A stretch of 64,000 bases of DNA from an uncultured Acidobacteriota bacterium. Lineage in GTDB: Bacteria > Acidobacteriota > Blastocatellia > RBC074. Positions 21,850 through 30,883 of this stretch are shown piece by piece; positions within the stretch are counted from its first letter, which is position 1; each line of letters starts with the position of its first letter. The stretch covers positions 544,001 through 608,000 of the forward strand of contig CAWCKY010000007.1 of NCBI GenBank assembly GCA_963796275.1. Direction: 5' to 3'. Both the position numbers and the translations under genes were made by a program. Below the pieces are notes generated by a model, which was not told where the DNA came from, made no database searches, and worked only from the letters and a program-made list of their open reading frames with translations.

Positions 21850-22714
21850 ATGAATAAACGAGCTGAAAAGAACTCCCTGCTCAGCGGCATCGGCGCGCGG
21901 GTGAGGGCAATGAGGTTGGAATGCGGTATGACGGTCAAAGAGTTCGCCGAGCGTGCGGCGATCTCTCCGCGTTTCATCAATCAGCTTGAAGCGGGAGATG
22001 GCAATATCTCTATCGCCCGGCTTGCACGTGTGGCCGAGGGACTCGGCCGCACACTGCCTGAGCTGATTCCACCACCGGAAGATGATGGATCTATTCGCTC
22101 GCGCACCTGGCGGCTATTGAGCGAATGCAGCGATGAGGATTGGCAGGAGCTTCACCAATGGCTGGAGAAGCGTAGCGGGAACCGGCTGGAGCAATCTTTT
22201 ATCGCGCTCATCGGTTTGCGCGGGGCGGGGAAATCGACAGTTGGCACGCTGCTCGCCAGGCGTCTCAAGCAACAGTTCGTTGAACTCGATCAATGGGTCG
22301 AAGAAGCCGCCGGAATGCCGCTTGGTGAAATCTTCGCCACACACGGCGAAGGATATTACCGGCGTCTCGAACGAGAAGCGCTGTCTCAGCTCTTTGTGAC
22401 TGCCTCCACCTCGGGCGGCTGCGTCTTCGCGCCGGGCGGTTCGATTGTGACCGATGCCGAGAGTTGGGAGCTTATCAAGAGGCGCTGTTTCACCGTCTGG
22501 TTGCATGCCCACGCCGGCAGAATTTATGAATCGAATGAGGCGCCAGGGTGATACCCGGCCAATGCAGGGGCGGCCCGCGGCGATGGCCGAATTGAGAGAC
22601 CTGCTCCAGCGGCGCGAACCGCTCTACGCCGAGTCGCAGCTGCACATCAAAACTACCGCTAAGTCGCCGGCCGAGATTACTTCACAGATCATAAAAGCAC
22701 TGGAAGAAAGTTGA
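21850..22714 (+). CDS. boxR: BoxR/BzdR-type regulator (XRE HTH + shikimate-kinase-like domain), split by a +1 frameshift near 22510
   Basis: HTH, GLRGAGKST P-loop, YYRRLEREAL; removing one C from GCCC at 22507-22510 gives WLHATPAEFMNRMRRQGDTRPM...LYAE; adjacent to hcr/box genes. Confidence 0.88.
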
Positions 22715-22835
22715 TGGTTGATAGTTGATAGTGGCTTTGTTGCATAAATCGTAAATGAATATTTCAGTTGACAGTTGTTAGTTTTCAGTTGCTGATCGAA
22801 TAAGCTCAGCTAAAACTAAAAACTGAAAATAACTG
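22711..22835. repeat. Heptamer arrays: TTGATRG x3, then degenerate TTTCAGT-type units and an inverted AACTGAA-type array
   Basis: ttgatgg-ttgatag-ttgatag overlaps the boxR stop; 22762-22794 is imperfectly complementary to 22806-22835. Confidence 0.75.
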
Positions 22836-22841
22836 CTCACC

Positions 22842-23028
22842 CTCTTCGCCGCGTTAGCGGCGGTTGATTGTAGCCGTGGGTTTTAACCCACGGTGGCGGT
22901 AGATTTTTTCACGTCGCGTCAGCGACGGTTGAATTCAGGCGTCGCTAACGCGACGCGGGAATATCCTTCAAGCCTTCCGTGGGTTAAAACCCACGGCTAC
23001 AATCAACCGCCGCTAACGCGGCGAAGAG
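22842..23028. mobile_element. 187-bp REPIN/MITE-like non-autonomous element
   Basis: Perfect 52-bp terminal inverted repeats (22842-22893, 22977-23028) plus a nested 16-bp inner inverted repeat. Confidence 0.75.
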
Positions 23029-23100
23029 CATATATAGAGTTTTCAGTTGATAGTTTGTTAGATTATTACCGTAGTGTTTAAGGGCTATCGACTAGTATTT

Positions 23101-27691: not shown

Positions 27692-27744
27692 TGCGTGCTA
27701 GATGGAGAAGCAGATCACCGCGGTAACAACAAAAAGGGGCTCTT

Positions 27745-29388
27745 ATGATCGATTTTCAGACTGCGCCGGAGCATTACCGTCACTGGAAGCTGACGGTCGA
27801 TGGCGCCGTCGCGACGCTGGCGATGGACGTGCAGGAAGAACAAACGCTCGGGCCGGGATACAAGCTGAAACTTAACTCCTACGACCTCGGAGTCGACATT
27901 GAACTTGCCGATGCCATCGAGCGGCTGCGTTTTGAGCACCCTCAGGTCGGAGTCGTCGTCGTCACCAGCCTCAAACCGCGAATCTTCTGCGCCGGGGCTA
28001 ACATATATATGTTAGGCAGTTCGTCTCACGCCGCGAAGGTCAACTTCTGCAAGTTTACCAATGAGACGCGCTGTGCGATTGAAGACGATTCGCGCCATTC
28101 GGGGCGGCGCTATATCGCGGCTCTCAATGGAACCGCATCGGGTGGCGGATACGAACTGGCAATCGCCTGCGATGAAATCTATCTAGTTGACGACGGCTAC
28201 GCGGCCGTTTCGCTGCCGGAGATCCCGCTGCTCGGCGTCCTTCCGGGGACTGGCGGATTGACCCGGCTTGTCGATAAACGCCGGGTGCGGCGCGACCGCG
28301 CTGATGTTTTCTCGACCATCGCTGAGGGGGTGCGTGGCAAGCGTGCGAAAGACTGGGGATTGATCGAGGATTGTTTCCCAACTACGAAGTTCCAGGATGC
28401 AATTGCGGCGCGATCGCGGGAGATCATCGCGCAAAATAGAATCCAGTCGGGCGACACAAGCGGGCTGCAGGGCATTCGGCTCAACCCGCTCGAGGTCGAT
28501 GTTACGCCTGATACGCGCGCGTACAGATACGTCAGCCTGCGTCTCAATCGCGATCGGCGATATGCGGACTTAACAGTGCGAGGGCCCGAAGACGGTCTCC
28601 CCGCCGAACCTTCCGAGATTCAGCGCATGGGCGACGCCTGGTGGCCGATCCGAGCCTTCCGTGAACTCGATAATGCGCTGCTGCACCTGCGCGTCAATGA
28701 ACCGGAGATAGGTCTGGTCTGCCTGCGGACGGAAGGCGACATCGGCAGCGCCCTCGCAATTGATTCGACTCTGAAAATGCGGTCTGATTTCTGGCTGGTT
28801 CGCGAAACCGTACTGCTGATGGCGCGTGTGTTGCGCAGGCTCGACCTGACGGCCAAAAGTTTCTTTGCCATGATAGAACCGGGAAGTTGTTTCGCCGGCA
28901 GTCTGTTGGAACTTGCGCTCGCGGCCGACCGCAGCTATATGCTCAATGATCCGAAACAGTCGAATGAACTGGCGATCAGCGATCTCAATATCTCCGGCTT
29001 TCCGATGAGCAATGGCCTGACGCGCCTGCAATCGCGCTTCTTCTCGGATCCGCGAAAGATCGCCGAGGTAGCCGAACATCAAGGCCGGTTTGATCCGGTT
29101 GCGGCTGATGACGTCGGTCTCATCACCCTAGCACCCGATGATCTGGATTGGGATGACGAAATTCGCCTGGCCATTGAAGAACGGACCGCGCTTTCGCCCG
29201 ATGCGCTGACCGGAATGGAAGCTTCGCTGCGATTTGTCGGCCCTGAGACGCCCGAGACCAAAATTTTTGGCCGTTTGACCGCCTGGCAAAATTGGATCTT
29301 TCAGCGCCCCAATGCCATCGGTGAACAGGGCGCGCTCACAAATTATGGTAAGCCGACGCAGCCTAAATTTGACTACCGGAGAACCTAG
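27745..29388 (+). CDS. boxC: 2,3-epoxybenzoyl-CoA dihydrolase
   Basis: YRHWKL, LKLNSYDLGVDIELADA, KVNFCKFTNETR, IFGRLTAWQNWIFQRPNA. Confidence 0.96.
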   Translation: MIDFQTAPEHYRHWKLTVDGAVATLAMDVQEEQTLGPGYKLKLNSYDLGVDIELADAIERLRFEHPQVGVVVVTSLKPRIFCAGANIYMLGSSSHAAKVNFCKFTNETRCAIEDDSRHSGRRYIAALNGTASGGGYELAIACDEIYLVDDGYAAVSLPEIPLLGVLPGTGGLTRLVDKRRVRRDRADVFSTIAEGVRGKRAKDWGLIEDCFPTTKFQDAIAARSREIIAQNRIQSGDTSGLQGIRLNPLEVDVTPDTRAYRYVSLRLNRDRRYADLTVRGPEDGLPAEPSEIQRMGDAWWPIRAFRELDNALLHLRVNEPEIGLVCLRTEGDIGSALAIDSTLKMRSDFWLVRETVLLMARVLRRLDLTAKSFFAMIEPGSCFAGSLLELALAADRSYMLNDPKQSNELAISDLNISGFPMSNGLTRLQSRFFSDPRKIAEVAEHQGRFDPVAADDVGLITLAPDDLDWDDEIRLAIEERTALSPDALTGMEASLRFVGPETPETKIFGRLTAWQNWIFQRPNAIGEQGALTNYGKPTQPKFDYRRT

Positions 29389-29393
29389 AAGAG

Positions 29394-29480
29394 AATGGAT
29401 AATGGATAATGGTCAGTTATCGACAACAACCACTATCAACTATCAACTATCAACTATCAACTTTGAATTATGAATTATGA
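29394..29480. repeat. Mixed heptamer arrays (AATGGAT)2, (ACTATCA)4 and (ATTATGA)2 filling the boxC-boxB spacer
   Basis: Read directly; the last ATTATGA supplies the boxB ATG. Confidence 0.9.
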
Positions 29481-30883
29481 ATTTATACGATCGCATTCCC
29501 AACAACGTCAATCTGTCTGCTGATGTGCGACTTCAGCGCGCGTTGGAAAAATGGCTCCCCAATTATCTGGATTGGTGGCGCGAGATGGGGCCGCAGGGAT
29601 TCCAGGAGAAGGATGTTTACCTGCGCACCGCGATCAGCGTCGAACCGGATGGCTGGGCGCATTTCGATTACATAAAGATGCCTGAATATCGCTGGGGCAT
29701 CTTCCTCACTCCCGCGGATCCGGATGCGAAAATCGGTTTCGGCGACAACTACGGCAAGCCGGCATATCAGGAAGTGCCGGGCGAGTTCCGTAACGCACTC
29801 CGCCGCATAGTCGTTACGCAGGGCGATACCGAGCCTGCTTCGGTGGAACAGCAGCGATGGCTCGGTCATACCTGCCCCTCGCTCTACGATCTGCGGAATC
29901 TATTTCAGGTGAACGTAGAAGAGGGACGTCACCTCTGGGCGATGGTCTATCTCCTGCATGCATACTTCGGGCGGGACGGGCGCGAGGAGGCGGAGGAATT
30001 GCTGCAACGCCGCAGCGGCAATGCTGACAAACCGCGTATCCTGCAGGCATTCAATCAACCGTGCGATGACTGGCTCAATTTCTTCTGCTTCACGATGTTC
30101 ACCGACCGCGACGGCAAGTATCAGCTTTGCGCGCTGGCCGAGTCGGGCTTCGAACCGCTCGCCCGCACGTGCAGGTTTATGCTGACCGAGGAGGCCCATC
30201 ACATGTTTGTCGGTGAGACCGGGGTGGGGCGCATAGTAAAACGTACGGCGCAGCTTATGCGTGCAAACAACAACAGCGACCTATCCGAGCTCGGCGGCAT
30301 TCCGCTCGCGATCATTCAGAAGTACATCAATTTCTGGTACACGTACTCGCTCGATCTCTTCGGCGGCGAGATCAGCTCCAATTCGGCGGACTTCTTCGCG
30401 GCTGGGCTCAAAGGGAGGTTCGAAGAGCAGAAAAAATACGAGGACCACATAGCAACGGATGGCGTGGTGACGATCGAATCGGTCGATGCGGGAGAGCTGA
30501 AGACGCGCGAAGTCCCGCTACGCAATGCCCTCAACGAAGTGCTGCGTGGCGAATACATGAAAGACAGCGAGCGCGCCTTGATCCGGTGGAACAGTTTGCT
30601 CGAGGAGGAAGGGATCGACGAAAGGCTTTATCTGCCGAGCCGCCGTTTCCATCGTCACGTCGGCGAGTATTCCGGACATCACTTCGACATCGAGGGGAAC
30701 TTGATTTCGCAGGCTGAATTCGAAAGCCGCTCTCGCGATTGGTTGCCGGATGTTGAAGATCGTAAGTATGTCAGAAATCTCATGACGGCTGTGACTGAGC
30801 CGGGCAAGATAGCTAACTGGATTACACCCCCGAAGACCGGTATAAATCGACGGCCGCCCGAGTTCGAGTATGTGAGGCTCTAG
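29477..30883 (+). CDS. boxB: Benzoyl-CoA 2,3-epoxidase diiron subunit
   Basis: IPNNVNL, TQGDTEPASVEQQR, diiron motifs EEGRH and EEAHH, DRDGKYQL. Confidence 0.97.
   Translation: MNLYDRIPNNVNLSADVRLQRALEKWLPNYLDWWREMGPQGFQEKDVYLRTAISVEPDGWAHFDYIKMPEYRWGIFLTPADPDAKIGFGDNYGKPAYQEVPGEFRNALRRIVVTQGDTEPASVEQQRWLGHTCPSLYDLRNLFQVNVEEGRHLWAMVYLLHAYFGRDGREEAEELLQRRSGNADKPRILQAFNQPCDDWLNFFCFTMFTDRDGKYQLCALAESGFEPLARTCRFMLTEEAHHMFVGETGVGRIVKRTAQLMRANNNSDLSELGGIPLAIIQKYINFWYTYSLDLFGGEISSNSADFFAAGLKGRFEEQKKYEDHIATDGVVTIESVDAGELKTREVPLRNALNEVLRGEYMKDSERALIRWNSLLEEEGIDERLYLPSRRFHRHVGEYSGHHFDIEGNLISQAEFESRSRDWLPDVEDRKYVRNLMTAVTEPGKIANWITPPKTGINRRPPEFEYVRL

Follow-up and report, generated by a model that had tools for sequence, protein, structure and literature searches.

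Can a reductive enzyme of the kind known from anaerobic aromatic metabolism supply a ring-cleavage pathway that requires molecular oxygen? The question is raised by a gene cluster in a 64,000-nucleotide stretch of DNA from a soil acidobacterium (hereafter the window, meaning the whole stretch analyzed), in which genes resembling those of 4-hydroxybenzoyl-CoA reductase (abbreviated 4-HBCR; hcrCA and hcrB) diverge from the benzoyl-CoA epoxidation genes boxC and boxB, with a boxR-like regulator gene alongside. In the textbook view, 4-hydroxybenzoate is degraded in air through PobA and protocatechuate, and Hcr together with benzoyl-CoA reductase (BCR) is reserved for anoxia. The occurrence of an Hcr-like enzyme and BoxBC without PobA or BCR in a near-complete genome, and the recurrence of this pairing in an unrelated phylum, suggest a third, hybrid route. 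The best explanation for the cluster is a CoA-thioester catabolic island for para-hydroxylated aromatic acids, and we consider it an evenly balanced proposition that its Hcr-like enzyme is an aryl-CoA dehydroxylase feeding benzoyl-CoA to the Box pathway. Full-text searches found no paper describing an hcr-box linkage or an aerobic route from Hcr to Box; in the available parts of two metagenomic studies, hcr and box genes are merely listed side by side in metagenome bins (PMC4782131, PMC4842900).

Gene content of the cluster and of its genome

The window spans positions 544001-608000 of contig C7 (1.07 Mb) in the source assembly, G000, which comprises 9.46 Mb in 7 contigs with a completeness of 94.7% and a contamination of 5.2%; every gene absence given below for this genome is valid within that completeness. 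A preliminary description of the window had spoken of a probable acidobacterium, which fits the nearest proteins and loci, titled Blastocatellia or Pyrinomonadaceae. The gene content and coordinates that it gave (hcrCA-hcrB and boxCB divergent, boxR alongside) are borne out by the list of open reading frames and by two family scans (Pfam and NCBIfam) of the 37 larger ones, which revealed in addition a 23S_rRNA_IVP-family gene and a boxR frameshift that it did not mention. BoxC and BoxB are equivalog-level matches to their NCBIfam models, and the module set of HcrCAB is present, with two [2Fe-2S] domains, a molybdopterin-binding part and an FAD-binding subunit. In the fused HcrC-HcrA protein, the two [2Fe-2S] domains occupy residues ~24-176 and the molybdopterin part residues ~187-933.

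No bcr, bzd or bad gene is found among the 37 scanned frames of the window, as the preliminary description had stated. A full BCR pathway elsewhere in the genome, which would explain Hcr in another way, was also looked for, and the models for BcrB (TIGR02260), the HGD-D family (PF06050) and the AFOR_N/BamB family (PF02730) each returned 0 matches in G000. With neither a class I BCR nor an AFOR/BamB-type enzyme at hand, the Hcr-like complex therefore cannot feed a reductase of these types. The bypassing of PobA and protocatechuate proposed for this organism agrees with the genome as well, in which neither PobA (TIGR02360; best 38 bits, cut-off 539) nor a PcaH over cut-off (TIGR02422; best 121 bits, cut-off 296) was found, so that the PobA route is not available.

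BoxA was not found in G000 either (TIGR03224; best 26 bits, cut-off 459). Two wider samples, of 201 genomes for the class and 401 for the phylum, were drawn for comparison, and BoxA exceeds its cut-off in none of the 201 class genomes, only FNR-like partial matches being seen in family f4, despite the presence of BoxB in 52 of them. No BoxA match was obtained in the three genomes with a co-linear hcr-box cluster described below. The general absence of BoxA raises the question of which protein reduces BoxB in such lineages; a missing BoxA has been treated as the sign of an incomplete cluster in the part available of one earlier study (PMC10803450). A 195-aa open reading frame following boxB (30926-31513) was rejected as a conserved BoxA substitute, for it belongs to no Pfam or NCBIfam family and has no homologue in 30 class loci.

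A CoA ligase is encoded elsewhere in the genome. This benzoate-CoA-ligase-family gene (C4:1380864-1382363; TIGR02262, 481 bits against a cut-off of 375) is unlinked to the cluster, lies beside methionine synthase genes, and is a 52% identical orthologue of the ligase heading the hcr operon of G063, the one relative within the family of the window genome that carries hcr. G000 also holds one 2-oxoacid:ferredoxin oxidoreductase alpha-type gene, a possible low-potential electron source. As a separate matter, the ligase model has 103 matches, and contigs C1, C4, C6 and C7 carry very many adenylation domains in open frames that reach 9,495 aa, which indicates large nonribosomal peptide synthetase clusters.

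A probable sister clade of 4-hydroxybenzoyl-CoA reductase

The nearest solved relative of the HcrA part is 1RM6_A (617 bits over residues 188-933; next PDB entry, 343 bits), and that of HcrB is 1RM6_B (174 bits; next, 110). HcrB carries an inserted loop of ~40 residues with the pattern C-x15-C-x7-C-x8-C at residues 124-157, all four cysteines being aligned with those of 1RM6_B, and the motif is kept in 80 of the 83 homologues that cover the loop. We take this loop to bind, in the beta subunit of 4-HBCR, the extra [4Fe-4S] cluster that distinguishes that enzyme. G000 has a single Hcr-type gene, its other paralogues of the xanthine dehydrogenase (XDH) family being at most 35% identical. The fused HcrC-HcrA form occurs also in the nearest database relatives (P0001-P0004, P0007 and P0008), and a plasmid collection yielded only XDH-family relatives, at up to 39% identity, and no named Hcr.

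All three modules score below the equivalog cut-offs of the 4-HBCR models: alpha at ~845-846 bits (TIGR03194, cut-off 994.55), beta at 260 (TIGR03195, 404.55) and gamma at 172 (TIGR03193, 257.8). Sixty-two of 63 further HcrA segments match TIGR03194, a paralogue in locus L025 giving no match at threshold, and their scores fall into two tiers, one of 973-1042 bits (L024, L025 and L130-L139) and one of 801-901 bits that includes the window. A FastTree phylogeny of 100 rows, rooted on four XDH-family paralogues and containing no Thauera or Rhodopseudomonas sequences, separates a clade I with equivalog-level scores (12 rows, support 98) from a sister clade II (84 rows, support 100). The window HcrA belongs to clade II, far from the XDH paralogues of its own genome, and stands beside its family relative G063 in a subclade of 42 rows, in which those members that bear a title are Blastocatellia or Pyrinomonadaceae. 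Similarity to 1RM6_A follows the same division, with 741 and 791 bits for clade I members and 613 for a Methylomirabilota protein of clade II, next to the 617 of the window. The identification of the enzyme as Hcr in the preliminary description thus stands in part: it groups next to 4-HBCR and not with unrelated hydroxylases, as its structural matches and conserved cysteine loop attest, but it is not canonical in scores or active site, nor probably in clade. Judged by its sequence, the molybdenum enzyme of the window is an uncharacterised cousin of 4-HBCR, neither an unrelated hydroxylase nor a canonical Hcr.

The active site differs between the clades as well. At the local motif, all 76 clade II rows long enough to show it (8 others are truncated) read GAKE[VAC]GQG, all 12 rows of clade I GAKEAGEG, and the 3 outgroup paralogues with the region GAKG.GE. 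The Gln of the clade II motif, Gln895 in the window, aligns with Glu869 of the Desulfovibrio gigas aldehyde oxidoreductase (1SIJ_A), and Glu is found here also in 1RM6_A, 3HRD_B, 8UEM_A and 7DQX_A; this active-site Glu is presumably the general base in the hydroxylases of the family. The exchange is reciprocal, clade II having Glu839 with Gln895 and clade I Gln839 with Glu895, and the Thauera chain shows the clade I state at both positions. In all, 13 columns cleanly separate the two clades, Gln895 and 12 further fixed ones. Because of the Gln at the active-site Glu and of these 12 columns, the substrate or chemistry of clade II may differ from that of clade I. On the broader proposal for clade II given below, the 839/895 exchange would mark a re-wired active site, possibly tied to oxygen tolerance or to another proton relay.

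Hcr-like genes (clade II, or clades I and II together at the threshold used) are present in ~30% of the sampled Acidobacteriota genomes, and clade II extends to Gemmatimonadota, Methylomirabilota, Chloroflexota and some archaea. The analysis delimits a probable sister clade of 4-HBCR that has many members and an altered residue in its active site, and that is directly testable because the clade is defined and the candidate substrates are clear.

Recurrence of the linkage and its regulatory region

That the association of hcr and box is not peculiar to the window is indicated by a set of 80 GTDB loci, retrieved through two peptide patterns that did not recover Thauera or Rhodopseudomonas. In three of these loci, one titled Rokuibacteriota (L172) and two titled Methylomirabilota (L206 and L207), a co-linear cluster on one strand reads hcrC-hcrA-hcrB, boxC-boxB, a RidA-family gene and a TIGR02262 ligase, the latter scoring 696 bits in L172 and 675 bits in L206, which has a PaaK-like ligase in addition. 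The three form a starred subclade of their own within clade II. Because they belong to another phylum and form a separate subclade, hcr and box became linked, or stayed linked, on at least two occasions.

Co-occurrence in genomes points the same way. The class sample contains 52 genomes with BoxB and 86 with an Hcr-like gene (E <= 1e-180), 36 of them having both (16 BoxB only, 50 Hcr-like only), and the phylum sample 73 and 122, respectively, with 47 having both (26 BoxB only, 75 Hcr-like only). Both counts exceed the expectation under independence. The odds ratios, 4.5 in the class sample and 6.1 in the phylum sample, are raw values, uncorrected for relatedness, and overstate the association, since genomes that share ancestry are not independent observations. 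Genomes carrying an unpublished flag (class, G130 and G199; phylum, G341 and G223) were counted in these tallies, and no claim depends on such genomes alone; when they are left out, the class counts are BoxB 50, Hcr-like 85 and both 35, of 199, and the phylum counts BoxB 72, Hcr-like 120 and both 46, of 399. Within the class, BoxB and Hcr-like genes lie on one contig in just two genomes, G000 at a distance of 2.5 kb and G052 at a distance of 44 kb. In the family of the window genome, Hcr-like genes are found in 1 of 55 genomes and BoxB in 9 of 55.

Further ties to aryl-CoA metabolism are seen in the surroundings of clade II hcr genes. In G063 the order is TIGR02262 ligase (504 bits)-hcrC-hcrA-RidA-family gene, with hcrB further along, and in loci L018 and L184 a BoxR-like gene diverges from an array of a PaaK-like ligase gene, hcrCA and hcrB, in this order; L019 repeats the array, and no BoxR-like gene was found within the stretch examined. 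A BoxR-like gene lies upstream of hcr in 9 of 80 metagenome loci, and there, as in L018 and L184, a PaaK-like ligase is often present too. (The metagenome loci are 68-82% identical to HcrCA and were judged on the flank present, many of the contigs being short; the fused relatives P0001-P0004, which are 90-91% identical, are not among them.) Potential consumers of benzoyl-CoA other than Box also accompany the enzyme, for pairs of genes of the BCR-like HGD-D family occur in 36 of the 201 class genomes, 31 of which carry an Hcr-like gene, and 56 of the 86 class carriers of Hcr-like genes have BoxB, a BCR-like gene or both. The class of the window genome is usually regarded as one of aerobes. Pairs of HGD-D genes were located in G063, G073, G010, G081, G160 and G011 (loci L124-L129), and in L124-L127 a BadH-like short-chain dehydrogenase/reductase gene accompanies a BcrC/B/A/D-like block, which scores best on class I benzoyl-CoA reductase models, below their cut-offs.

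Other features of these neighborhoods deserve separate mention. A RidA/L-PSP-family gene recurs in hcr or hcr-box clusters of unrelated lineages (L014:10950-11354, L172:9163-9639 and L206:17073-17576). A gene for a short BoxB-like protein of 372-383 aa (TIGR03225, 215-226 bits against a cut-off of 499; 33-37% identical to the window BoxB) lies 1-3 kb upstream of hcrC in L132 and L134-L139, of clade I, and in L140 and L151, of clade II; in L134 and L139 it stands amid genes for enoyl-CoA hydratase, aldehyde dehydrogenase and 3-hydroxyacyl-CoA dehydrogenase. In family f6 (L015, L016, L018, L019 and L028), the hcr operon is in conserved synteny with four cytochrome c oxidase subunit genes, and a 163-167-aa protein of no family is encoded in all of these loci but L018. 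Between the oxidase genes and hcr lies a gene for Fe/Mn superoxide dismutase (L015 and L016) or for a 203-214-aa unassigned protein (L016, L019 and L028).

The regulator of the window combines an HTH_3 and a shikimate-kinase-like domain, the domain build of BoxR (NF006015, 209 bits against a cut-off of 204). The two pieces of its broken frame align with the BoxR of L030, residues 7-222 at 64.5% identity and residues 223-286 at 59%. The 192-bp spacer between the divergent operons, which the preliminary description had called operator-bearing, contains a perfect 14-bp palindrome, TGCATTATAATGCA, at 27558-27571, overlapping a -10-like TATAAT, and a second half site of the GCACTATA type at ~27591-27604, besides five copies of a 7-bp repeat. 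The annotated ATG of hcrCA is 5-19 bases away from the palindrome; the true start of hcrCA may be further in because homology to HcrC begins only near residue 24. This type of palindrome resembles the BzdR/BoxR operators of Azoarcus. In favor of an operator, a looser motif, GCA[ACT]TATA[ATG]T, recurs in 5 of 7 BoxR-linked intergenic regions as against 75 occurrences in 9.46 Mb, a contrast inflated by the derivation of the motif from those same regions. On the other side, palindromes of this kind are no more frequent in the window than expected by chance (2 matches, 1.25 expected). The exact pattern TGCA-N6-TGCA was not found in 21 homologous intergenic stretches, and the only other strict TGCA-N-TATA-N-TGCA palindrome in G000, at C7:87843, sits amid unrelated hydrolase, GH127-like and glycosyltransferase-like genes; as a conserved operator, the exact pattern was ruled out on these two grounds. 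The label of operator-bearing is thus supported in part, the spacer palindrome being a putative operator.

The coordinates of the cluster are collected in Table 1. Its flanks in the window consist of a pseudopilin-like gene, a gene for an MFS transporter, and genes for TonB-dependent receptors and glycosidases. Short tandem arrays of different 7-bp units, with up to 8 perfect copies, occupy almost every intergenic gap of the cluster: after boxR, after hcrB, on both sides of the IVP gene, in the spacer and between boxC and boxB. Five of the six perfect arrays of at least three copies in the window lie inside the 7 kb of the cluster. The gap between hcrA and hcrB is itself a hot spot of insertion, holding the IVP gene in the window, a Uma2-family gene in L015, L017 and L028, and a RidA-family gene in L014 (G063).

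Table 1. Features of the hcr-box cluster, in window coordinates
Feature	Position	Strand	Families, scores and remarks
boxR-like regulator, 5' part	21850..22509	+	HTH_3 and first 100 positions of shikimate-kinase-like domain (Pfam, NCBIfam)
boxR-like regulator, 3' part, next frame	22511..22714	+	SKI positions 95-158
hcrB-like FAD subunit, 327 aa	23161-24144	-	FAD_binding_5, CO_deh_flav_C
23S_rRNA_IVP-family gene (four-helix-bundle), 107 aa	24203-24526	+	PF05635, 110 bits
Fused hcrC-hcrA, 982 aa	24604-27552	-	Fer2, Fer2_2, Ald_Xan_dh_C, MoCoBD_1, MoCoBD_2
Divergent spacer, 192 bp	27553..27744		Between hcrCA and boxC
boxC, 2,3-epoxybenzoyl-CoA dihydrolase	27745-29388	+	TIGR03222, 807 bits (cut-off 712)
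boxB, benzoyl-CoA 2,3-epoxidase oxygenase subunit	29477-30883	+	TIGR03225, 741 bits (cut-off 499)
7-bp tandem arrays	22709-22791, 23100-23171, 24149-24180, 24573-24598, 27627-27663, 29394-29483, 35490-35510		Repeat search of window

The proposed route, its rivals and known systems

Observed are the gene content, the domain and cofactor motifs, the lack of BCR, PobA and BoxA in the genome, and a second phylum with the linkage; the substrate, the reaction direction, the electron donors, the oxygen regime and the regulation in the following course are inferred. The benzoate-CoA-ligase-family enzyme encoded on contig 4 would make the CoA thioester of the aromatic acid. The Hcr-like complex would then work in the reductive direction: low-potential electrons, perhaps from the 2-oxoacid:ferredoxin oxidoreductase, would reach its molybdenum site by way of the extra [4Fe-4S] cluster, FAD and the pair of [2Fe-2S] clusters, and the ring hydroxyl of 4-hydroxybenzoyl-CoA or a close analogue would be removed there to give benzoyl-CoA. 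BoxB would epoxidise this product with O2, using a reductase other than BoxA, and BoxC would open the ring. Both operons would be regulated, through the spacer from which they diverge, by a protein of the BoxR type. The microaerobic setting put forward in the preliminary description is pure conjecture. If the route is true, a reductive step thought of as anaerobic and an O2-dependent step would take place within one cell, and the route would serve abundant soil phyla with few cultured members in the turnover of plant phenolics. More broadly, and with a good deal of reserve, it can be proposed that clade II, with its Gln-type active site and extra [4Fe-4S] loop, is a large family of aryl-CoA dehydroxylases, whose benzoyl-CoA would pass, in oxygen-respiring soil bacteria, to a BoxA-less BoxBC or to a BCR-like reductase, opening a PobA-independent CoA route for lignin-derived 4-hydroxybenzoate.

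A number of observations weigh against this proposal, starting with the model scores below cut-off and the 13 clade-separating columns, Gln895 among them, set out above. Characterised 4-HBCR is oxygen-sensitive and needs a low-potential ferredoxin. Within the cluster there is no CoA ligase, the IVP gene splits hcrB from hcrCA on the opposite strand, and a single surplus base at ~22510, within a CCC run, interrupts the boxR-like frame between two halves that are otherwise open, a frameshift that may be a true mutation or an assembly error. Among the 36 class and 47 phylum genomes with both genes, adjacency is found only in G000; the other gene set was present in 0 of 16 hcr loci and 0 of 14 box loci of the class, each examined with ~9 kb of flank, and boxB or boxC in 0 of the 80 metagenome loci. 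The co-localisation for which the preliminary description had advised a survey is thus not conserved in class, phylum or metagenome loci, and it does recur in the three Methylomirabilota/Rokuibacteriota genomes, of which two hold BCR-like pairs and the third none. Thirty of the 86 class carriers of Hcr-like genes, some of them near-complete assemblies, have neither BoxB nor a BCR-like gene, and of the 49 genomes of family f6, 44 have Hcr-like genes but only 4 have BoxB, the neighbors of hcr there being cytochrome oxidase, superoxide dismutase and cofactor genes.

The main rival explanation is that clade II is a distinct molybdenum enzyme, that its substrate is not 4-hydroxybenzoyl-CoA but perhaps another phenolic or heteroaromatic compound, maybe a CoA ester, that its product does not enter the Box pathway, and that the adjacency seen in the window is a lineage-specific rearrangement of little functional meaning. 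An adjacency unique among 201 class and 401 phylum genomes, an hcr operon that keeps company with housekeeping genes in f6, and a region shown to be prone to rearrangement by its hcrA-hcrB insertions and 7-bp repeats all speak for it, as do the 50 of 86 class carriers that lack BoxB, the model scores below cut-off and the Gln at the active-site Glu position. So does a characterised member of the same enzyme family, the urolithin C 9-dehydroxylase Ucdh, which acts on a phenol that is not a CoA ester, according to the available part of its description (PMC12771579). Against it stand the independent recurrence of the linkage, in hcrCAB-boxCB-ligase order, in Methylomirabilota/Rokuibacteriota, the frequent presence of aryl-CoA ligases and BoxR-type regulators beside clade II hcr, and the marked co-occurrence with BoxB and BCR-like genes. 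We judge it unlikely, although it stays alive because of the rarity of the adjacency, the 30 carriers devoid of a benzoyl-CoA consumer and the Glu-to-Gln change.

Two other explanations would assign the complex a different task. It might serve Box directly, either by standing in for the missing BoxA as the partner that transfers electrons to BoxB, or as a molybdenum enzyme that abstracts the oxygen atom from the reactive 2,3-epoxybenzoyl-CoA and so returns it to benzoyl-CoA when the pathway stalls. BoxA is indeed absent from G000, from the 201 class genomes and from the three genomes with co-linear clusters, the complex carries FAD and three Fe-S clusters, and a Gln where the general base would be expected speaks against the usual chemistry of a hydroxylase; moreover, BoxB itself has been proposed, in the part available of one report (PMC5489048), to deoxygenate epoxides as a side activity. 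Nonetheless, BoxB evidently works without Hcr-like genes, which are lacking in 16 of the 52 class genomes that carry BoxB and in 26 of the 73 such phylum genomes; the Hcr-like carriers without BoxB are as numerous as noted above, and the full molybdenum-cofactor module is conserved, which would be superfluous in a mere electron carrier. We regard a direct service to Box as quite improbable, and the replacement of BoxA by Hcr was ruled out as the principal interpretation by the many BoxB carriers without Hcr-like genes. The enzyme might, on the other hand, run oxidatively and hydroxylate benzoyl-CoA or another aromatic in the para position, in keeping with a host class that is mostly aerobic by gene content and with the cytochrome c oxidase and superoxide dismutase genes that adjoin hcr. 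This direction is barely credible, given that the general-base Glu is replaced by Gln in 76 of 76 clade II sequences, that the [4Fe-4S] loop associated with inverted electron flow persists, and that neither PobA nor PcaH was found in the genome that could use the 4-hydroxybenzoate produced. Dehydroxylation of an aryl-CoA ester with delivery of benzoyl-CoA to Box is hence the reading that we retain, at the even balance stated at the outset.

Among known systems, Ucdh of Enterocloster bolteae offers a parallel for the chemistry. According to the available part of its description, the xanthine oxidase family has two characterised reductive dehydroxylases so far, 4-HBCR and, found second, Ucdh; the latter is 32.7% identical to 4-HBCR, has a three-subunit build, and acts on a free lactone, from which it takes away the phenolic hydroxyl that is para to an electron-withdrawing carbonyl (PMC12771579). 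The window enzyme, likened here to Ucdh by that description, belongs to the same family and is far closer to 4-HBCR. With HcrCAB of Thauera aromatica (1RM6/1SB3) and HbaBCD of Rhodopseudomonas palustris it shares the three-module build found in the xanthine oxidase family, and with the Thauera enzyme also the inserted loop of the beta subunit, its four [4Fe-4S] cysteines in register. It departs from the Thauera enzyme in the fusion of its gamma and alpha modules into one protein of 982 aa, in the pair Gln895/Glu839 where Thauera has Glu/Gln, and in a host without benzoyl-CoA reductase. The box genes, for their part, recall those of Aromatoleum (Azoarcus) evansii and the Burkholderiales in their equivalog-level BoxB and BoxC and in the BoxR/BzdR-type regulator alongside. 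Those systems comprise BoxA, BoxB, BoxC, BoxD, a ligase and BoxR, whereas the window genome is without BoxA and the window cluster without a ligase or aldehyde dehydrogenase gene; its boxR is frameshifted and does not diverge from boxC, and the divergent position is taken instead by the Hcr-like operon.

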